A DNA stretch of 64,000 nt from assembly GCA_965205265.1 (NCBI GenBank), contig CBDBGH010000003.1, positions 4,672,001-4,736,000 on the forward strand, read 5' to 3'. Of the stretch, positions 2,727-34,506 are shown piece by piece (position 1 is the stretch's first letter; every line of letters begins with the position of its first letter). The position numbers and the translations under genes were made by a program. Source of the stretch: Alphaproteobacteria bacterium. Its GTDB lineage: Bacteria > Pseudomonadota > Alphaproteobacteria > Bin95. The notes under the pieces are model-generated. The model had not been told where the DNA came from. It saw only the letters and a list, made by a program, of their open reading frames with translations, and made no database searches.

Positions 2727-4473
2727 CTACGCCGCTATATCTGCCGTCGGACGAAGAGGCACGCGGAAGAAGAGGGCGGCGGCAAATGACAGGACCGTCA
2801 TGGCGGCGATGATGGAGAAAACGTCGTTCAGCGCCCCGGCCAGTGCCGAGACCAAGGAATCGTTCAGCATGCCCGCAAGAGCGGCCCCGGCCGGCTCAGC
2901 TCCCGTGGTCTGCGCCATCAAGGACTCCGCAAGGAACCGATCAGCCAACGCTTCGGGGCGGCTCTTGAGAGCATCGAGTTCACTCGGTGAAAACGCCTCC
3001 CTCACGCGGTTGGGGACGGTCTCGTCGAATGCCAAGCGGAAGCGCTGCTCCATCACCGCGCCCAGCACGGCGATACCCAGCATGCCGCCGAGCGACCGGA
3101 AGAATTGCAGGCCCGCGGTCGCTGCGCCCACGAGAGCGAACGGGACCGTATTCTGCACAGCAAGCGAGAGCGTAGCCACGGTCGCGCCGAAGCCGAGCCC
3201 GACGACCGAGACATAGAATGCGCATGCGAGCAGGCTCGTCGTCTCGTTCATGGTGGAAAGCGGATACATGCCAAACACCATGAGGCCGGTGCCGGCCAGC
3301 GCCTGGAGCCGGTAGTGTCCGCCGGCTCTCGAAAGCAACTGTCCCGAGACGATTCCGCCGCCGACCATGCCGAGGAGTATGGGAATCAGGAGATAGCCGC
3401 TGATGGTCGCCGATATCCCCAACACGACCTGGAAGAACAGCGGCAGGAACAGCACGCTTCCGTAAAGCCCCAAACTGGTCAGCAGCGTGACGACGACGGC
3501 CACGCCAACCACCCGATCGGCATAGATTCCCAACGGCATGACGGGCACGGACGCCTTGGTCTCAAGGACCACGAAAAGCCCGCTCATCGCCAGCCCGAAA
3601 GCGAGCAGGCCGAGTGACGACGACGGCCACGCCAACCACCCGATCGGCATAGATTCCCAACGGCATGACGGGCACGGACGCCTTGGTCTCAAGGACCACG
3701 AAAAGCCCGCTCATCGCCAGCCCGAAAGCGAGCAGGCCGATGATCTGCGGCGTGTCCCAGCCGTACCGCACGCCGCCCAGAGAGAGCGCAAGAAGAAGGG
3801 GGACAACGGCGAGGGCCAGCGCCACCATGCCGGGAAGGTCGAGCCGCGGAGTCTTCGCGGCCCGACCGCGGGCGGGATAGTTCTTCGCGATCAAAGCTAG
3901 AATCGGGATGCCGGCCAAGGCGATCAGGATGAACGCCCACTGCCAGGAAAGCCGCTCGGCGACCAATCCGCCCAAGACCGGCCCTGCGACGGAGGCCACG
4001 CCGAAGGCAGCACCGAGCAGGCCGTGATACTTGCCCCGGTCTTCGGGTCGGAACAGGTCGGCGATGGAGACGTAGCAGCAGGTCATGACGACCCCGCCGC
4101 CGATCCCCTGCAGGATCCGGAACGCGACAACCTGGGTCATCGAAGTACTGACGCCGACGAGCCAGGAGCCGGCGATGAACACCGCCATGCCGACGATCAG
4201 GAAGCGCTTGCGTCCGTGGATATCGCTCAGCCTGCCCGCAATGGGAGCGATGACGGTCGCCGCGACGATGTAGGAGGTCACGGCCCACGTGTAGCGCTCG
4301 AATCCGCCGAGATCGACGACCATCAACGGCAGGGTCGTGGCAACCACGGTCTGGCTCAGCGCTGCCAGGAACATGGCCAACATCACGCAGATCATGGCCG
4401 GCATCACCAGGCGCGGAGGGGGCGCCACGAAATCCTGGTCAGCCGACGCTCCGCAAGCGGAGTCAGCCATCAT
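2727..4473 (-). CDS. DHA2 (EmrB/QacA-like) MFS efflux transporter, frame broken by a 127-bp duplication
   Basis: [11 protein letters not shown] motif A and many TM helices; removing the duplication leaves 1620 bp in one frame. Confidence 0.85.
3487..3740. repeat. Perfect 127-bp tandem duplication (3487-3613 and 3614-3740)
   Basis: Direct comparison of the two units. Confidence 0.95.
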
Positions 4474-20759: not shown

Positions 20760-21751
20760 GCGGGCACCCATTGGCCCCGCATCTGGCAGACTTCTTCCAT
20801 CATCGCCTGAACGGGCAACTCAACGCCAGCGAACATACGGTGAAGAGCTACCGGGACGCCATGAAGCTACTGCTGACCTTCGCTCAGAAGCAGCTGGGCC
20901 GCGAGCCGATGCGGCTGGAAGTCGAGGACATCGATGCCGATCTCGTCTGCCGGTTTCTGGACCATCTCGAGACGGACCGGAAGAACAGCATCGCCAGCCG
21001 AAACATCCGGTTGGCCGCCATCCGCTCCTTTTTCACGCATGTCTCCCGCTGCGAGCCAGCCCTGCTCGATCACTGTCGGAAGGTGGGCTTGCTGCCCGGC
21101 AAGCGGCAGCGCAAGCCGACGGTCCAGCATCTCGACGAGGCCGAGATCCAGGCCCTGCTCGATGCCCCGAACCTCGATACCCGCACGGGCCGGCGGGACC
21201 GGGCGATCCTGCTGCTGCTGGTACAGACCGGACTGCGGGTCGGTGAGCTGATCAATCTTGACCTCGGCAACATCAGCCTCCAGGGTCAGGCCAGTGTCTT
21301 CTGCCTCGGCAAGGGACGCAGGGAACGCTCGACCCCGCTCCGGCAGGATACCGTGCAGGTGCTCAGCGAGTGGATGGAGGAACGGGCCGCCGGCGCCGGC
21401 GACCCGCTGTTCGTGAGCAACCGGAATCGGCGACTCAGCCCCGACAGTGTCCAGCAACTGGTGCGCCGGCATGTCGAACGGGCGGCCCGACAGTGCCCGT
21501 CACTATCGGCCAGGCGGATCACTCCGCACAGCTTGCGACACACCGCAGCCATGCAGCTTCTGCGTCATGGCCGGTCAATCACCGTTATCGCCTTGTGGTT
21601 GGGACACGAATCGACCATGACGACGATGAAATACCTGCATGCGGATCAGAGGATCAAGCAGGAGGCCATGGAACTGACGCGGCCAGCGGACGTCCCACCG
21701 GGGTGCTACCAGCCAACTGACGAGGTGATGGCCATGCTTAACGCCCTGTGA
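20756..21751 (+). CDS. ritC: RIT tyrosine recombinase C
   Basis: TGLRVGE, HSLRHTAAM, IALWLGHES..TTMKY. Confidence 0.88.
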   Translation: MSGHPLAPHLADFFHHRLNGQLNASEHTVKSYRDAMKLLLTFAQKQLGREPMRLEVEDIDADLVCRFLDHLETDRKNSIASRNIRLAAIRSFFTHVSRCEPALLDHCRKVGLLPGKRQRKPTVQHLDEAEIQALLDAPNLDTRTGRRDRAILLLLVQTGLRVGELINLDLGNISLQGQASVFCLGKGRRERSTPLRQDTVQVLSEWMEERAAGAGDPLFVSNRNRRLSPDSVQQLVRRHVERAARQCPSLSARRITPHSLRHTAAMQLLRHGRSITVIALWLGHESTMTTMKYLHADQRIKQEAMELTRPADVPPGCYQPTDEVMAMLNAL

Positions 21752-21841
21752 AGCCACCGATTAATGCCGCGTTTTCCGGACCCGAAACCCAAGTGCAGCA
21801 AGGGGCTGACACCGGAAACGCGGCATTAAAATTTTTGCGGC

Positions 21842-21881
21842 ATTGGAACATTTATGCCGAATTCGGCATAAATGTTCCAAT
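21842..21881. repeat. Perfect 40-bp palindrome at the RIT right end
   Basis: ATTGGAACATTTATGCCGAA|TTCGGCATAAATGTTCCAAT. Confidence 0.95.
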
Positions 21882-22120
21882 AATGCGTACACCGTGGCCG
21901 AGGCGCCGTCCTTCATCCGCACCCGGAAGATGGCGTCCGCCTGCGTGGCCCGGCCGTCGCCGTCGATGGCGGTGCCCTCGATGTGTTCGGGCGCATGGTC
22001 GGGGTCGAGCCGTTCGCGGACCTCGGGCGGCAGGTCGTCGCGAAGCAGGGCCGCGGCGCGTCCGGGATCGGAGACGAGCTGGCGGAACAGGGCGTCGTGC
22101 CGGGCCGGGGGCAGGGGCAT
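21872..22120 (-). pseudogene. Rpn-family nuclease, N-terminal part
   Basis: MPLPPARHDALFRQLVSDP...QADAIFRV...VYALLEH. Confidence 0.85.
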
Positions 22121-22164
22121 GCGGGGTCTCCAGACGGTCTCAGGTTGCGGCGGCGACCTGTGCA

Positions 22165-23469
22165 CTACGGCAGAGAGTGCCCGTGACATGGCTCCCGGGC
22201 AACACGGGAATCGCCTGCGGTCGGTGCCGCCGGGGCCATCAGGGCCTCGATCCGGTCGGCGATCCGTTGGGCCGGCTCGCGCAACTGGGCGAGGGTCCAG
22301 TCGGCGGCATAGCCCTCGGTCACGTCGTTGGGCCGGGCATGGTTGACCAGTCGCTTGGTCAGCGAGGGCGGCAGCATCAGCTCGCGCTCGGCGACGGTGA
22401 TGAAGCAGTTGCGCAGCCCGTGAAACCAGAACTTCGCCCCGCCGGCCTTGCCGATGCGGGTGTAGAGATGGTGCGGATCCTGCACATGGCCGGTCGCGCT
22501 TGTGGGCGACGGGAACACCCACTCCCGAACCCAGTCGGGCAGGTCTGCGGACGCCGCCCGGCGCCGTTCGAGAATAGCCGCGAGCTGCCGGGTGACGGGA
22601 AGCTCCAGCGGAACGCCGGTCTTGGTCTCCTCGACCCGGAAGGCGAGGGCCTCGCTGTCGATCCGCTCCCAGCGCAGGGTCAACACCTCCTCGCGGCGCA
22701 TGCCGGTGTAGAGCCCGAACCAGAGCGCGTCGCGGATCGCCGGGTTGTGGACCTCGACCTCGATGCCCCGGCGCCAGCACGGCAGCACTTCCGAAGGCGC
22801 CGAGATCTTGCGCCGCGCCTTGCGGTGGAACTTGCCGCCGCCGGCAAGCCAGAGATCGACCGGATTGCGCAGTCCCTCCTGGTCGACGCAGGGCCGGCGA
22901 TAGATCGAGCGCAACAGCGACATCGCCCGGTTGGCCGGCGACCAGCCGTGGTCTGCGGTGATGCGGTTGAAGCGGGCCTCGACGTCCCGGCGGGCGATCA
23001 GGTCGAGGGGACGGGCGAGCCAGTCGCCGAGATAGCGGTTTGCCTCGTAGCGGTAGAGTTCGTCGGTGCGCTTCGACCGCTCGGGATTGGCCTTCATGTA
23101 GTCCTCGAAGGCCTCGCCGAGCGTGGGCATGCGGCGGGCCTCGGCGCGCTCCTCGGCCGGATCGTTGCCGCCGGCAACCTTGCCGAGGATCTCCTGCGCC
23201 TTCCTGCGCGCCTGGTCGACGGTGACCGCGCCGAAGCGGCCGAGCGAGACGCGCTTGTTGGGCGCCTTCCGGCCGCCGTCGCCGACGCGGTAGTTGACGA
23301 TGAAGGTCCGGGTGCCCGCCGGGTGGATGCGGACGCCGAAGCCGGTCAGCCGGTCGTCCCAGGCGATCCACGAGCGCTCGGCAGGCTGGAGCGTCTCCAC
23401 GGAGCGCTTGGTGAGTGTCGTGCGCACCCTGGCGGTGCGTTTTCCGGAAGTCGGTTGCATGGGGGGCAT
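22165..23469 (-). CDS. Tyrosine integrase with arm-binding (DUF4102-like) domain
   Basis: WDDRLTGFGVRI, YTGMRREE, HGLRN, LVNH..TEGY; start codon approximate. Confidence 0.9.
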   Translation of the reverse strand: MPPMQPTSGKRTARVRTTLTKRSVETLQPAERSWIAWDDRLTGFGVRIHPAGTRTFIVNYRVGDGGRKAPNKRVSLGRFGAVTVDQARRKAQEILGKVAGGNDPAEERAEARRMPTLGEAFEDYMKANPERSKRTDELYRYEANRYLGDWLARPLDLIARRDVEARFNRITADHGWSPANRAMSLLRSIYRRPCVDQEGLRNPVDLWLAGGGKFHRKARRKISAPSEVLPCWRRGIEVEVHNPAIRDALWFGLYTGMRREEVLTLRWERIDSEALAFRVEETKTGVPLELPVTRQLAAILERRRAASADLPDWVREWVFPSPTSATGHVQDPHHLYTRIGKAGGAKFWFHGLRNCFITVAERELMLPPSLTKRLVNHARPNDVTEGYAADWTLAQLREPAQRIADRIEALMAPAAPTAGDSRVAREPCHGHSLP

Positions 23470-23640
23470 CGTGCCACCGCGCAAGCGAAACGTCAACACT
23501 TGCGTCAACACGCGGAATCAACTTCCAGCTGTCGCCATCTGTCAGGGGTCGCGGTTGACAAACCGCCAAAGGCATGCAATACCTTGGTTTATCATACTCC
23601 AGCGCACGTCAGGCGGCGTGATGCGCAAATCTCCGCGAGA

Positions 23641-23685
<45 letters not shown>

Positions 23686-25102
23686 CCGAGACCGACATTC
23701 CCGGCCTGGGCGTGTCGGTTTCTCCTTTCCCGGCCCATTCGAGGATGGTTCCGAGGTCGCCATGGAGTGCGGCGTGCATCTCGCCGCGCTTCGCGCCGGG
23801 GGTGAGCACGATGCGCTCGATCAGCCCCCGGATGGCGGTCGCCGCCGCGCCGCGGTCCTCGGGATGGTCCAGCGCCTCGGCGAGGCGCTCGACCTTGCGG
23901 CGGTAGACGAGGGCGATGTTGGGGTGGATGTCCGGGAGGTCGGCCGGAACGGCGGCGAGGCGTTCGTTCAACGCGTCCTGGCGCGCTTCCAGCTCGCGCA
24001 GCCGGTCCACCATGCCCCGGACATAGCCACCGTCCTCGATGACCGAGATCATGGCGGCGATCTTCCTCTCGATCTCGGCGAGTTCCTTGCGGTCGCTCGC
24101 GCCCGAGGCGCGGCGCTCGCGGTTGAGCCGGTTGGTCTCTTCGGCATATGCCTTCATCGCCTCGGCGGCGGCCTTCGGCGCCATCAGCCGGTCCTTCAGC
24201 CCGGCGAGGACGCGTTCCTCGATCTCTGCGCGGCGGATGCCCCGGCCGTTGGCGCAGGACCCCGTCATGACGTGGCTGGAGCAGCCGTAGCGGTCCTGGC
24301 CGCGCATGGAACAGGGGCCGCCGCAGACGCCGCATTCGAGCAGGCCCGAGAGCAGGTGCCGGGGCCGGTGGGCGCCGTTCAGCCGGTTGGAGCGCGCGCT
24401 TTGCGTGGCCGCGATGACGGTGGCGTATTGCACCGTGATTTCGCCCTGGCGGTCCTTCACCGCCTGCCACAGTTCGTCGTCGACGATGCGGAGCTCGGGA
24501 ACCTCGGCGACGATCCACTCCTCCGGCGGGTTGATGCGCGAGACCCGCCTGCCGGTCTCCGGGTTCTTCATGAAGCGCAGCCGGTTCCACACCAGCCGGC
24601 CGATATAGAGTTCGTTGTTGATGAGGCCGGTGCCGCGCTTCGCATGGCCCCGGACGGTGGAATCGGTCCACAGCCTGCCGGACGGGCCGGGGACGGCCTC
24701 GTCGTTCAGCCGCCGCGCGATCGCGCGCGGGCTCGCGCCGGAGGCGAACTCCCGGAAGATGCGCCGGACGATCTCCGCTTCCGCCTCGTTGATCCGCCGC
24801 TCGCCCCGGATCGGCTCGCCGGCGGCGTCGACCGCCTTCACCACATCGTAGCCGTAGCAGAGCCCGCCGCCCGACTTGCCGGCCTCCACGCGGCCCCGCA
24901 GGCCCCGATGCGTCTTCGCCGCGAGATCCTTCAGGAACAGCGCGTTCATCGTGCCCTTGAACCCGACATGGAGTTCGTCGATCTCGCCCTCCGCCAGCGT
25001 CACCACCGTCACCCCGGCGAAGCGCAGGTGCTTGTAGAGCGTCGCCACGTCCGCCTGGTCGCGGCTCACCCGGTCCAGCGCCTCCGCGACCACGACCTCG
25101 AA

Positions 25103-26439
25103 GGGCCTTACAAAGATGAGTTGACGGCGTCATGCCGCCAGCATCCCTGCGTTTTCACGGATCGCAGGGGTCCGCAAGCCGGAACGCCCCTCCCCGTGCA
25201 GCAGCGCCAGTCCCCGACGCCGGATGTTGCTGCCGGCATTCGCGTCGGCATGGTCCGCATGGCCGCAGGCCGTGCACTGGAATTCGGCCCGCGAACGCCG
25301 CGAGCCGGCATCGACATGGCCGCAGGCGGCGCAGGTCCGGCTGGTATGGGCCGGGTCGACCGCGAGCAGCCGTCCCGCCTTGTAGCCGAACATGAAGCGC
25401 AGTTCCGCCCATCCCGTGGCCAGGATGACGCGGTTGAGCCCGGCCTTCTGCCGGACCCGGGCGCCCGGCTCCTCTGTCGTGCCCCGGGCGCTGCGCGTCA
25501 TGTTCCGGACCCGGAGGTCCTCGACGGCGACGGTATGGGCGGCGTCGGCGACTGTCCGCGAGACATGGTGGCGCCAGTCGCACCGCATCCCGGAAAGGCG
25601 CCGCCTCGTCTTCGCCAGACGGGCGCGGGTGCGCTCCCGGCGCCCGGAGCCGCGCTTCTGGCGCGCCAGACGCCGGGCAAGGCGCTTCGCCCTCGCCTCC
25701 AGCCGCCGCGTATCCGGGGCATGGAACAGGCGGGCTTCCGGCCCCGGACCGCTCGCCGCCACCTGGCCAGCGTTCATGTCCACCCCGATGACGCTGTCGT
25801 CATCCTCGTGGACCGCCGGCGCCGGGACCCGGTAGCAGACCACGGCGTACCACTTGCCGGCCTCGCGCTTCAGCACCGCCGAGACCGGCTCGCCATCCCC
25901 ATGCGGGTTGCCGCCCCGCCGGCGGACCGCAAGCGGGCCGAAACCCGGAAGGCGCAGGCAGGCCGCGCCGGACCCGCAGTCCGCGCCGGGCCGGGCCCGG
26001 TCCTCCAGCCTCACCCCCGAGACGAAGGAGAGGCTGTCGAACCGCCGGCGGGACCGGAACCGGGGAAAACCCGGCTTCTGGCCCGCCTTCACCCGCCGGA
26101 AGAAGCCCTTCATCGCCTCGTCCAGGCGCTTCAGCGTCCCGCGCTGCACGGCGACCGGAACGGCCGCCATCTCGGGGTCCTCCCGGCGGCACACCGTCAG
26201 GCTCTTCGCCTGGTCGATATAGGAGAGCGACCGCCCGGCCAGACGCCAGGCGTCGCAGCGTTCCTGAAGGGCGGCGTTGTACAACTGCCGCTGCGCCTCC
26301 AGAACCCGCTCCAGACGCCGCCAAACGGACCGGCGGCCCGGCAGAAGCCGGAATACCACCTGACGGTGCGTGAAGACCTCGCTCATGCGGCCGAACTGGA
26401 TACGATACACGGCAATGTCAACTTACCTTTGTAAGCCCC
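25103..26439 (-). mobile_element. Non-autonomous TnpB-only element with 23-bp TIRs and 8-bp TSD
   Basis: TIRs 25103-25125 and 26417-26439 (20/23 match); ACCTCGAA at 25095-25102 and 26440-26447. Confidence 0.9.
25130..26386 (-). CDS. tnpB: TnpB RNA-guided endonuclease
   Basis: LYNAAL, GFPRFR, RuvC GVDMN / VEDL / HADANA, CxxC..CxxC zinc finger; alternative GTG start at 26410. Confidence 0.93.
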   Translation of the reverse strand: MSEVFTHRQVVFRLLPGRRSVWRRLERVLEAQRQLYNAALQERCDAWRLAGRSLSYIDQAKSLTVCRREDPEMAAVPVAVQRGTLKRLDEAMKGFFRRVKAGQKPGFPRFRSRRRFDSLSFVSGVRLEDRARPGADCGSGAACLRLPGFGPLAVRRRGGNPHGDGEPVSAVLKREAGKWYAVVCYRVPAPAVHEDDDSVIGVDMNAGQVAASGPGPEARLFHAPDTRRLEARAKRLARRLARQKRGSGRRERTRARLAKTRRRLSGMRCDWRHHVSRTVADAAHTVAVEDLRVRNMTRSARGTTEEPGARVRQKAGLNRVILATGWAELRFMFGYKAGRLLAVDPAHTSRTCAACGHVDAGSRRSRAEFQCTACGHADHADANAGSNIRRRGLALLHGEGRSGLRTPAIRENAGMLAA

Positions 26440-26670
26440 ACCTCGAACATCCCCCGCCGCGCGTCCTCCAGCAGCGCCTGGACGCCGGGGCGCAGGATCA
26501 CGCTGTCGCCCGAGATGGCGGAGTCCCTGTAGGCGCCCGCCACCTTCCAGCCCTCGCGCGCGGCGCGCTCGCGGCAGATGCGGAACTGGTCCTCTATGGA
26601 AGCCGCCCGCTGCTGGTCGGACGAGTAGCGGGCATACAGCGCGCAGCGAAGGGGCATGATGAAGGGTCTC

Positions 26671-26889
26671 CTATCTCTCGCCGGCCTCCCCGGTCGGTGC
26701 ATTGTCGTTGGCCGCGGCGCGCCTGTCGAATTGCTCGCGCGCGATGCGCCGCCCGAGCAGCCAGGCCAGCCTCGCCACGGCGGCATCGACCCGCGCTTCC
26801 GGATCGTCTGTCCTGGCTCCCGGGCCGGGATTGTCGTTCGCCGCCGCGCCGCCCGTGGCGGCAATCCCGCGTTCCCCGCTCTCCGGCAT
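26671..26889 (-). CDS. Small hypothetical protein upstream of the serine recombinase
   Basis: 72 aa, co-oriented, LAWLLGRRIAREQF flanked by two AANDN repeats. Confidence 0.5.
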   Translation of the reverse strand: MPESGERGIAATGGAAANDNPGPGARTDDPEARVDAAVARLAWLLGRRIAREQFDRRAAANDNAPTGEAGER

Positions 26890-27072
26890 CCCCTCGCGCC
26901 TCCCGTAGCACCATGCTTCCGGGAACAGGTCTGGGTCCGCGGTCCGGCCCTGTCAAACCGGTCATGTATGGGAGTTCCCGCATCGAATCATCCCCTTGCG
27001 TGCCCTTGGCCGCCCCTGGCGCGGCATGCCGCGCCAGGGGGATGATCGACAAAAAATCGCCGGCCGCGCGAC

Positions 27073-27480
27073 TCATGATCCTTCCCGATCGAAGAGCGGA
27101 ATACCCATGGCGCGGGCGACGGCGGTCATGCGCTGGTCGTGGCTCGCGAGCGTCACCTCCTGACCGTTCTCGGCCAGATACGCGCACGACGCCAGATGCA
27201 GGGCGTCGAGGGTCCGCAATGTTAGCGGACCGGGGCCGGGAAACGCCTCCAGCGCCCGCGCCAGAACCCGCCGGCTCAGCTCCAGCAGCGCGACCCGCCC
27301 GAGCAGACCGCGGGCCGCCTCGCCATGCGACCCGGCAAGCCCGCGCCGGTGCAGCGCAGTCCATATCTCGTATTCCAGCAGCCGGCTGGAGACCAGGGTC
27401 TCGTCCCACAGCGAGACCGGCGGCTGTTGATCCTCGGTGAGGAGATGCGCAAGCGCGACCGACGTGTCGAGATAGATCAC
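27073..27480 (-). CDS. vapC: PIN-domain toxin
   Basis: MIYLDTS, LRTLDALHLAS. Confidence 0.9.
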   Translation of the reverse strand: MIYLDTSVALAHLLTEDQQPPVSLWDETLVSSRLLEYEIWTALHRRGLAGSHGEAARGLLGRVALLELSRRVLARALEAFPGPGPLTLRTLDALHLASCAYLAENGQEVTLASHDQRMTAVARAMGIPLFDREGS

Positions 27481-27770
27481 CGGTCGCGCCGGCTTTCGTC
27501 CAGCTCCGCCAGAACATCGTCCAACATGGCGACCGGCGGCGGCTTCGGCGGCATCCCCGAGCCGGACAGCGCCGGCGGCGCGAGAACGCCGGAGCGCACC
27601 GCGTCGGCCAGGAAGGCGTCGGCGAGGATCGGGCTCCGGGATTCCCTCAGCGGGCCGAGTTCCGCCACGACCTGATCGCGGTCGGTCACGAGAATCGTTT
27701 CGCCGGACGCCGCAAGCCGGACATATTCGCTCAGCTTGCTGTTCAGAACCTTGATCCCGACCGATCTCAT
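27477..27770 (-). CDS. Phd/YefM-type antitoxin
   Basis: MRSVGIKVLNSKLSEYVRLAASGETILVTDR; overlaps the toxin start. Confidence 0.85.
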   Translation of the reverse strand: MRSVGIKVLNSKLSEYVRLAASGETILVTDRDQVVAELGPLRESRSPILADAFLADAVRSGVLAPPALSGSGMPPKPPPVAMLDDVLAELDESRRDR

Positions 27771-27874
27771 GCGCTCAAGGTAGCGACCGATCGCTACCGC
27801 GTCAACCGCCAGCGCCACCGCCAGCGCCAGCGGCCCTGCCCGTCAGGTGTCCCCGGACCTCCTGCGCCGGCCGT

Positions 27875-28630
27875 CTACCGGTAGATGTCGAACGGAAAAT
27901 ACCGGGCGCTGATCCTGCGGTAGGCGCCGTCGGCGAGGATCGACCGAAGCGCCCGGTTCAGCCGGTTGCGAAGCGCGTCGTCTTCCTTGCGCACCGCGAT
28001 GCCGATGCCCTCGTCGAGACGGTAGCCGTCGCCTACGAAAGCGAAGCCGGCGCCCTCGGGGGTCCCGAGCCAGCTCCAGAAGCCGAGGCTGTCGCCGAAC
28101 ACCGCATCCAGCCGGCCCTCGACAAGACCCCGCATGAGCGCGTCCTGACCGGCGTAGAGCCGGATGGCGGCAACTTTCGACAGGTTGGCGTCCAGCCAGT
28201 CCGAAGCGACGGTGGCGCGCGCCGCGCCGACGGTCCGGCCCGCCGGCGCGGCGGGATCGAAACCGGAGCCCTTGCGGGCCACGAAGCGGACGACGTTGCT
28301 GTAGTAGCGGTCGGTGAAAGCCACCAGACGCCGGCGCCTGTCGGTGATCGACATGCTGGAGACGATGGCGTCGAAACGGCCGGCGCGCAGGGCCGGGATC
28401 AGCTCTTCCCAGTCCCGGCGGACGAAGGCGCATTGGGTTTCCAGACGCGCGCAGAGCGCACGGGCGATGTCGATGTCGAAGCCGACGAGCCGGCCCGCAT
28501 CGTCGACCTCGCTGAACGGCGGGTAGGTGGGGTCGACGCCGATGCGCAGCCTCTCCGGCGCCGCGTCACCGCCGAACGCGGGTGCACAGGACAGCAGGGC
28601 AAGGAGGAATGCTGCGACCAGCCTCTTCAT
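27875..28630 (-). CDS. Amino-acid ABC substrate-binding protein (orphan)
   Basis: Signal peptide, YPPFS, GFDIDIARALC, ITDRR. Confidence 0.88.
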   Translation of the reverse strand: MKRLVAAFLLALLSCAPAFGGDAAPERLRIGVDPTYPPFSEVDDAGRLVGFDIDIARALCARLETQCAFVRRDWEELIPALRAGRFDAIVSSMSITDRRRRLVAFTDRYYSNVVRFVARKGSGFDPAAPAGRTVGAARATVASDWLDANLSKVAAIRLYAGQDALMRGLVEGRLDAVFGDSLGFWSWLGTPEGAGFAFVGDGYRLDEGIGIAVRKEDDALRNRLNRALRSILADGAYRRISARYFPFDIYR

Positions 28631-34419: not shown

Positions 34420-34506
34420 CACTGGCTCCCTTCAAACGGGTCAACACAACCCTCGGCAACATCAAGAGTGCCATCGCCGGAACCTACCGAAAGCTCGGTC
34501 CCGATG
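34420..34506 (+). pseudogene. IS1595-family transposase C-terminal remnant
   Basis: FKRVNTTLGNIKSAIAGTYRKLGPD. Confidence 0.6.

Follow-up and report, generated by a model that had tools for sequence, protein, structure and literature searches.

TnpB is the ancestor of Cas12, and the way in which this nuclease secures the retention of its transposon has been worked out for the IS605 and IS607 elements, which excise without a scar and make no target-site duplication. Here we describe a tnpB gene in a different kind of element. In a 64,000-nucleotide stretch of an alphaproteobacterial genome (assembly GCA_965205265.1, contig CBDBGH010000003.1, positions 4,672,001 to 4,736,000 of the forward strand; hereafter the window) the gene lies between inverted ends that are themselves flanked by an 8-bp duplication, and we interpret the whole, with a probability of about 0.8, as a non-autonomous element of the IS1595 family that carries a complete TnpB module—the nuclease gene together with its omega-RNA scaffold—and is served by a transposase supplied in trans. 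The IS1595 family includes forms that carry passenger genes, and within that family the present element may be of the ISNwi1-like subgroup.

The main text of Altae-Tran et al. (2023, PNAS, PMC10691335) describes six TnpB branches (DDE-1 to DDE-6) linked to DDE transposases, all of them with inverted terminal repeats, as well as lone TnpBs inside such ends, whose mobilisation in trans was presumed; the pertinent passages of a 2026 review (PMC13565253) associate TnpB with three DDE families, namely ISL2, IS630 and IS1031. An earlier annotation of this DNA (hereafter the original prediction) had therefore implied too high a novelty, DDE-linked and lone TnpBs in such ends being already on record in that main text. 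The present element resembles DDE-1 to DDE-6, as there described, in having a prokaryotic TnpB between inverted terminal repeats and a tnpB gene that extends, on its 3' side, nearly to the border of the transposon. It appears to differ from them in its family, IS1595 being absent from that main text, to which the comparison refers; and it differs further in that no IS1595 transposase occurs in cis at any of the 26 loci of the present lineage, with the consequence that a survey of gene neighbourhoods would not link this lineage to a DDE family. In the literature searched, which comprised neither subscription papers nor supplements, we found no report of a TnpB within IS1595 ends.

A second comparison is with the Fanzors. 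According to the relevant portion of Yoon et al. (2023, PMC10711439), an inverted end and the duplications of Fanzor1 and Fanzor2*, which occur in eukaryotic and viral transposons, are contained in the predicted guide-RNA scaffold. As in those elements, which are of the cut-and-paste type and often non-autonomous, a TnpB-family nuclease is here housed between inverted ends with duplications; unlike the Fanzors, the present element is bacterial, of the IS1595 family and provided with a compact canonical TnpB. The 8-bp duplication, moreover, varies from site to site, so that, in contrast to the Fanzors, it can form no fixed part of a scaffold and should instead constitute the first 8 nt of the guide.

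In content the element is like the lone tnpB elements of the IS1341 type, with a size of ca. 1.3 kb, tnpB as the sole gene and a predicted omega-RNA overlapping the 3' end of that gene; the RNA scaffold, too, is homologous to that of IS605-type sisters. The elements of the IS200/IS605 and IS607 groups, however, have neither inverted ends nor a duplication according to the passages on them in the review (PMC13565253), in agreement with what the original prediction had asserted. Membership in IS200/IS605, the IS1341 group included, is thus contradicted by the 23-bp inverted ends, by the duplications at six of seven copies and by the lack of a Y1 gene, and membership in IS607 by the same ends and duplications, the adjacent serine recombinase being an interrupted target and no part of the element; the nuclease and the RNA nevertheless derive from those groups. 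With passenger-carrying IS1595 elements, such as the 2840-bp element described below, the present one shares ends of the GGGG-TTAT type, matching those of a transposase-bearing member, and 8-bp duplications; it departs from the members of that family in lacking a transposase gene of its own and in having as cargo an RNA-guided nuclease whose predicted RNA makes use of one inverted end. The general kind is already published, and what appear to be new are the IS1595 family, the strictly trans association, a variable 8-bp duplication that should open the guide, and a right end that is incorporated into a covarying RNA homologous to that of IS605.

Structure of the element and its insertion site

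The element occupies 1337 bp (window 25103-26439) bracketed by ACCTCGAA on both sides, its ends being 87% complementary (20/23; Table 1). It contains a single long frame, tnpB; no DDE transposase of the zinc-ribbon type is encoded in the 1337 bp, nor is there a Y1 gene among its frames. These dimensions, ends and duplication, as originally claimed, were borne out by the sequence and by seven copies in the genome.

Table 1. Features of the tnpB element and of the interrupted gene, in window coordinates.
Feature	Position	Strand	Remarks
Target-site duplication, right-end side	25095..25102	.	ACCTCGAA on the + strand, TTCGAGGT in tnpB sense; single in both intact paralogues
Right-end inverted repeat (RE), 23 bp; also 3' end of the predicted omega-RNA scaffold	25103..25125	-	Cognate-specific pairing with the adjacent interior sequence
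Predicted omega-RNA scaffold, 128 nt; covers the last ~33 tnpB codons	25103..25230	-	Model R1, covariation
Predicted guide: ~20 nt of flank past the RE, the 8-bp duplication first	25083..25102	-	Inferred; the scaffold model stops at 25103
tnpB	25130..26410	-	Longest frame, GTG start, 426 aa
Left-end inverted repeat (LE), 23 bp, reverse complement on +	26417..26439	+	No cognate-specific pairing with the adjacent interior
Target-site duplication, left-end side	26440..26447	.	From the sequence
Serine recombinase, C-terminal part (Recombinase, Zn_ribbon_recom, remainder of Resolvase)	23642..25102	-	
Serine recombinase, N-terminal part (N-terminal half of the Resolvase domain)	26440..26864	-	

The genome to which the window belongs (5.70 Mb in three contigs, 68% G+C; label G000) holds seven full-length copies of ca. 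100% identity plus one 518-bp left-end piece. The repeat unit formed by these copies stops exactly at the inverted ends, and six of the seven have a perfect 8-bp direct repeat at their borders, a different one in each instance; read in the sense of tnpB, the six duplications are AAAGGAAA, AAAGCAGA, AAACGTTC, TTCGAGGT, AAAGTTGT and TTCTACGA, which 8-mers are A+T-rich against a genome of the above G+C content. With seven copies and a repeat unit so delimited, the ends and duplications are far beyond chance, and the element has multiplied recently. The left-end fragment (C3:4849555-4850072; loci L008 and L028) lies 6 kb from the copy that has no duplication (C3:4855744-4857080; L004), and this piece may have been left behind when two copies rearranged with each other.

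The gene interrupted in the window codes for a large serine recombinase, whose Pfam domains Resolvase, Recombinase and Zn_ribbon_recom are split across both flanks. Two intact paralogues exist in the same genome (C3:3440579-3442500 and C3:3558516-3560425, with 94% and 90.6% DNA identity, respectively); upon alignment to either one the two flanks overlap by exactly 8 bases, and the paralogues read ...RRGMFEVVVAEALDR..., in which string TTCGAGGT occurs once. That removal of the element plus one duplication restores the recombinase, as had been predicted, is accordingly confirmed by two uninterrupted paralogues with a single 8-mer. The empty recombinase allele, which the original prediction had proposed to look for, is in this way represented by proxies. 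A contig from the DNA run X6 that skips 1345 bases (1337 + 8) was rejected as an excision product: its identity to the window is ca. 93%, which value identifies it as a paralogue. The other joints found in the four DNA runs likewise came from paralogues, and those runs contained no evidence of excision. The window recombinase and its two paralogues constitute three related recombinase-bearing elements within one genome.

A promoter scan yielded no sigma-70-like site, and one terminator-like hairpin is located at the tnpB stop codon and right end. When the element was scanned against Rfam, no family exceeded its threshold and no omega-RNA family was matched. A sub-threshold LAGLIDADG-2 match inside tnpB (window 26047-26172, - strand; 29.7 bits versus a gathering value of 94.9) is probably due to chance in G+C-rich sequence.

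The TnpB protein

The product of the gene matched the Pfam profiles OrfB_IS605 (52.6 bits, cut-off 30.5) and Cas12f1-like_TNB (51.7 bits, cut-off 26.3) and the NCBIfam profile guided_TnpB ('RNA-guided endonuclease TnpB family'; 182.2 bits, cut-off 100). Throughout 40 homologues of 51-76% identity the RuvC residues D211 and E297 and the zinc-finger cysteines C360, C363, C379 and C382 were invariant, and D389 was conserved in at least 90%; the zinc finger, of the form CxxC...CxxC, is placed between RuvC-II and RuvC-III. The original description of the sole gene as a TnpB with all three RuvC acidic residues and a zinc finger thus stands on both the profiles and this alignment. The nearest natural solved structures are those of the ISDra2 TnpB (8h1j and 8exa; E ~3e-25), and the protein aligns over its full length with a designed TnpB-like nuclease. 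The enzyme is predicted to cleave DNA under RNA guidance and in dependence on a transposon-associated motif (TAM). The homologues favour the ATG at 26386 as the start codon, with which start the real protein may be of 418 aa.

Related ends in the genome and the candidate transposase

We searched the genome for the 23-mer end, allowing up to five mismatches, and obtained 50 end-like sites, of which 15 belong to the tnpB copies, 24 to 12 small elements and two to a 2840-bp element, the remaining nine being solitary. The 2840-bp element (C3:1919671-1922510; L009 1001-3840) is present in a single copy with perfect 23-bp ends and the 8-bp duplication TCATGTTT, and encodes a 332-aa protein with the domains DDE_Tnp_IS1595 (E 1.3e-41) and Zn_ribbon_IS1595 and an NCBIfam IS1595 match of 204.7 bits. 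Its end agrees with the right end of the tnpB element at 20/23 positions and with the left end at 19/23, a likeness as close as that between the two ends of the tnpB element itself. The check put forward in the original prediction—a transposase bracketed by related ends—has consequently found its answer in an IS1595-family element, which is, by inference, the best candidate source of the transposase.

The 12 small elements, of 192-248 bp and without a transposase, have a perfect 8-bp duplication in nine instances; examples are found at C3 42319-42552 (L011) and 4278783-4278974 (L012). Four of them share their 8-mer with the 2840-bp element (TCATGTTT, or the complement of it), and the flanks of these five are similar, as if a repeated sequence had been targeted. 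The passenger frames of the 2840-bp element include a 277-aa putative lipoprotein, in which TbpB_B_D scored below threshold (22 bits, cut-off 26). A separate IS1595 element, present in four copies, has ends of the GGGGATTATATAC type and 8-bp duplications.

The IS1595-like remnant that had been claimed at ca. 34420-34506 could not be substantiated: a tblastn search with the IS1595 transposase of the genome and a Pfam search both gave nothing there at E<=10. The loss of that remnant is immaterial to our interpretation because seven intact IS1595-family transposase genes exist elsewhere in the genome.

Distribution and phylogeny of the lineage

The architecture extends well beyond the genome of the window. 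In another species of the same genus (G015) TnpBs of 76-78% identity, plus a decayed copy of 55-63%, are contained in elements of 1.32-1.35 kb with related ends, two of three having perfect 8-bp duplications; and in a member of another family of the same class (G425) a 57% homologue has such ends. From 456 metagenomic relatives we kept 80 loci, among which—the proteins being 36-71% identical—10 have such ends on both sides and four on the right side only, while the remaining loci are mostly without them. In all, seven of the 14 two-ended elements from outside the genome of the window have a perfect 8-bp duplication, each a different one. The proposal in the original prediction that homologues be collected and inspected for ends and for differing 8-bp duplications has accordingly been answered in the affirmative for the ends, down to an identity of ca. 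36%, and for the duplications in half of the elements.

No IS1595 transposase was detected by tblastn beside tnpB at any of the 26 lineage loci within flanks of ca. 0.5-3 kb, which absence, together with that from the element itself, makes the lineage non-autonomous. The four other genomes with the lineage all have IS1595 transposases. A like end architecture is seen in a 1724-bp IS1595 element of G015 and in a left end of G425, and the IS1595 elements of the three genomes have in common the layout GGGG-TTAT...TTGAC; 8-bp duplications also occur at transposase-bearing IS1595 elements both in the genome of the window and in G015.

Other collections added little. A single-protein search of genome contigs returned four loci, one of them in the lineage, and the plasmid collection contained no relative at E<=1e-40. 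Viral contigs yielded 71 relatives, none above 38% identity; the longest 30 of these had no convincing IS1595-type ends, with two weak one-sided matches to the end motif.

We constructed a maximum-likelihood tree of 84 TnpBs, namely that of the window and those of 83 of the 88 tabulated loci, after dropping five loci that lack an open frame of 300 aa (L029 included). All 18 rows labelled as having such ends—four of which labels were assigned from the right end alone—fall on one side of a single branch, so that the label need have changed only once; a branch with a Shimodaira–Hasegawa-like approximate likelihood-ratio (SH-aLRT) support of 99 sets off 64 of the rows without the label, and L069 and the long-branched L070 are unplaced. 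The sisters L073 and L099 adjoin genes for Y1 (IS200-like) transposases, from which adjacency we regard the nearest relatives as being of the IS605 type; and the whole lineage probably goes back to a single event, long past, in which an IS605-type TnpB module was captured. In those sisters the RNA ends in ...GGAATCCC or ...AAATCCC at the matching positions of the model described below, and a terminal TCCC therefore seems to be ancestral to the RNA. That TCCC is at the same time the complement of the GGGA with which the IS1595 ends of the lineage begin.

The predicted omega-RNA

Over their last ca. 125 nt the elements retain nucleotide-level conservation, and do so even where protein identity has dropped to ca. 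36-40%. From the folds of 19 elements we derived a common structure consisting of a stem A, a long-range CACGG/CCGUG stem around a hairpin B, and a stem C in which the right inverted end supplies the 3' strand. The corresponding covariance model, R1 (128 positions, 33 pairs), was searched against 99 sources totalling 476 kb and gave 50 matches: 24 at 62-132 bits, 25 weaker ones and one that was spurious. The window copy scored 131.8 bits. Of the strong matches, 23 of 24 have their last position on the outermost base of a previously located right end, among them six loci that had taken no part in the building of the model; the exception, L069, has no recognisable right end. The weaker matches (22-47 bits) are full-length and lie at the 3' ends of other tnpB genes, including the IS605-type sisters. 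In the genome of the window, where 150 of ca. 7000 candidates were scored, R1 recognised only the seven tnpB copies and none of the small elements.

In the alignment fitted to R1, 81.7% of the cells were paired as against 62.4% in shuffles, and 35 of 39 pairs had changed on both sides; the covariation score was 0.370 versus 0.127 in shuffles (reached in 0 of 500), and slid controls gave at most 0.114. Raw duplex energies, in which the G+C content of the ends acted as a confounder, yielded no signal; double-centred energies, for which no alignment is needed, are independent of the fitting to R1. So computed, the preferred partner of each right end is the sequence upstream of it in its own element—as low a value was reached in 0 of 20000 permutations with 13 representatives and in 3 of 20000 with nine—whereas the left end displays no comparable cognate pairing (1998 of 20000). 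On plain MAFFT alignments RNAalifold recovered the structure in part.

The terminal 6 nt of the end likely form a pseudoknot with the loop of stem A: at least five of six pairs can form in 17 of 18 rows (five of six in the window copy), compensatory changes occur in L029, L044, L065 and L056, and over the wider alignment the pairing amounts to 67%. The text of Yoon et al. that treats RNA structure (PMC10711439) describes a pseudoknot beside the guide for TnpB and Fanzor RNAs, to which the present pairing is similar.

The right end thus doubles as the 3' stem and as the pseudoknot strand of the predicted RNA, and the element possesses, on computational grounds, a structured RNA that overlaps the 3' end of tnpB and stops at the transposon boundary. 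Because the scaffold has its last base in the right inverted end, at the very border of the element, the duplicated 8 bases should be the first of the guide. The possibility that the inverted end itself serves as guide was rejected, in that the scaffold model, with the IS605-type sisters included, reaches the last base of the end.

Weighing of the alternative explanations

One might suppose that an ordinary IS605-derived lone tnpB had landed by chance in a small IS1595-type element, the composite then having spread in the genome of the window only, for which course of events the 12 small elements with related ends and the recent spread of seven near-identical copies would provide the means. 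Against such nesting, the same architecture recurs with TnpBs of 36-78% identity in another species, in another family and in metagenomes, with the ends diverging along with the proteins; TnpBs with such ends cluster on the tree; the right end covaries with the upstream RNA and closes the conserved scaffold on its 3' side; R1 is confined to the tnpB copies, in the sample scored; and a second, inner set of IS605-type ends is not needed. As the conserved 3' structure of the RNA includes the right end, we are dealing with an old and stable fusion, and the nesting hypothesis, already largely refuted, retains hardly any probability. Of the findings that would have spoken for it according to the original prediction, homologues mostly with IS605 or IS607 ends did not materialise, the homologues sharing the ends; and the right end, being part of the RNA, speaks against an IS605 derivative that landed in a miniature inverted-repeat transposable element (MITE). 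The mover could also be a DDE transposase of some other family that makes 8-bp duplications, with the likeness to IS1595 ends being superficial. Families other than IS1595 also make 8-bp duplications or have ends that start with GG, and it is through end similarity that the link is drawn, a transposase never being adjacent; nevertheless, we judge this quite improbable in view of the 20/23 match to the ends of a genuine IS1595-family element that resides in the genome of the window and of the end layout and duplications that the IS1595 elements share here, in G015 and in G425. The 2840-bp element, the ends of the homologues and the RNA thus support the core of the original prediction, a TnpB in a non-autonomous element with IS1595-type ends.

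A further alternative accepts the architecture and questions the role: the TnpB might not act in homing and could be directed at other targets (rival elements, plasmids), assist transposition in some other manner or be selfish cargo. This view, which we hold to be unlikely though deserving of attention, gains from several observations that also weigh against our own interpretation. No TAM-like motif precedes the duplications, the five bases in that position at the six duplicated copies being GGAGG, GCGCG, GGACG, GGATG, TGCCG and ACACC. The predicted 20-nt guide of the window copy perfectly matches the two intact paralogues, in each of them after GGGGGATG, and both are uncut and empty; the untouched matches signify either a context without a TAM, or an idle nuclease, or a wrong guide model. 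Cut-and-paste DDE elements, furthermore, would gain less from homing, their excision already leaving a break, as is argued in a passage of the 2026 review (PMC13565253). The help that homing would bring to an IS1595 element depends, too, on its mode of transposition (cut-out or copy-out) and on whether it excises at all. As to the architecture, a perfect duplication is absent from one of the seven copies here and from seven of the 14 two-ended elements elsewhere; the fold of the 3' region as a single sequence is no better than that of shuffles (z = -1.21); the pair counts, from an alignment fitted to R1, lean towards the model; and the RNA partly overlaps coding sequence. What speaks for a homing role is that conservation of both the catalytic residues and the RNA scaffold extends throughout a deep lineage, and that the scaffold stops at the element boundary as in the IS605 relatives, with the result that the guide changes with each insertion, which behaviour fits a role at the element's own locus better than one against a fixed external target.

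Proposed mode of action and significance

The IS1595-based interpretation would operate as follows. An IS1595 transposase made elsewhere in the cell would bind the ends and move the element; transcripts of tnpB would run on past the right end as far as the flank and would be trimmed by TnpB to the omega-RNA, self-processing of which kind is reported in the relevant part of PMC10278001. The guide would consist of the first ~16-20 bases of the flank, with the duplicated target bases as its first 8. Upon loss of the element, the restored site—left flank, one 8-mer, right flank—would match the guide and be cut by TnpB, and repair from a sister copy would reinstate the element; the occupied site would be spared, in that the bases ahead of the target there are the element's own end. 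Retention through such cutting and repair has been shown for the TnpBs of IS605 and IS607.

Carried further, these considerations lead to a scenario that we put forward tentatively, with somewhat less than even confidence: that an IS605-type module of TnpB and omega-RNA came, through a single old capture, to lie between IS1595 ends and founded a large and still active bacterial lineage, existing solely as a transposase-less IS1595 passenger, in which the end is read as DNA by the transposase and as the RNA 3' stem and pseudoknot by TnpB, the guide opening with the duplicated 8-mer.

The lineage represents a nuclease–RNA module in a DDE transposon with a variable 8-bp duplication and with an inverted end built into the RNA. 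Should homing by TnpB operate in it, retention under RNA guidance would extend to bacterial DDE transposons whose duplications vary, and the lineage would parallel, in compact bacterial form, what is seen in the Fanzors. Several questions become testable in bacteria: whether cut-and-paste DDE elements benefit from RNA-guided homing, how the TAM is satisfied if a different enzyme chooses the target, and how one sequence evolves under the constraints of both transposase binding and RNA folding. Other 'lone' TnpBs may likewise belong to transposon families that are invisible to neighbourhood-based surveys. A ready experimental system is at hand in a single genome that has both the seven near-identical copies and a candidate transposase.

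Neighbouring genes and further observations

The recombinase region is rich in mobile elements. On one side of the recombinase a tyrosine integrase (Arm-DNA-bind_3 and Phage_integrase; window 22165-23511) is encoded, and on the other (27073-27818) a toxin–antitoxin pair of the PIN and Phd_YefM-like type; ARAGORN detected no tRNA gene in window 21500-28000.

Among the TnpBs of the sister clade, L057 (69-89 / 1417-1437) and L111 (530-547 / 1897-1914) have in common a different inverted end of 18-21 nt, starting with GGTAGTGTCTCAGTTTG, and L050 has a 40-nt inverted repeat (2899-2938 / 4245-4284); these three may be further TnpB lineages inside the ends of other DDE families. On the metagenome contig L040, a tnpB element lies between two 90-nt inverted repeats that are ca. 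90% alike (40-129 and 1833-1922), and this element may sit inside a larger one. In L056 (1538-2965), a member of the lineage where the right end alone was recognised, a gene for a DnaB-type replicative helicase is located directly upstream of tnpB.

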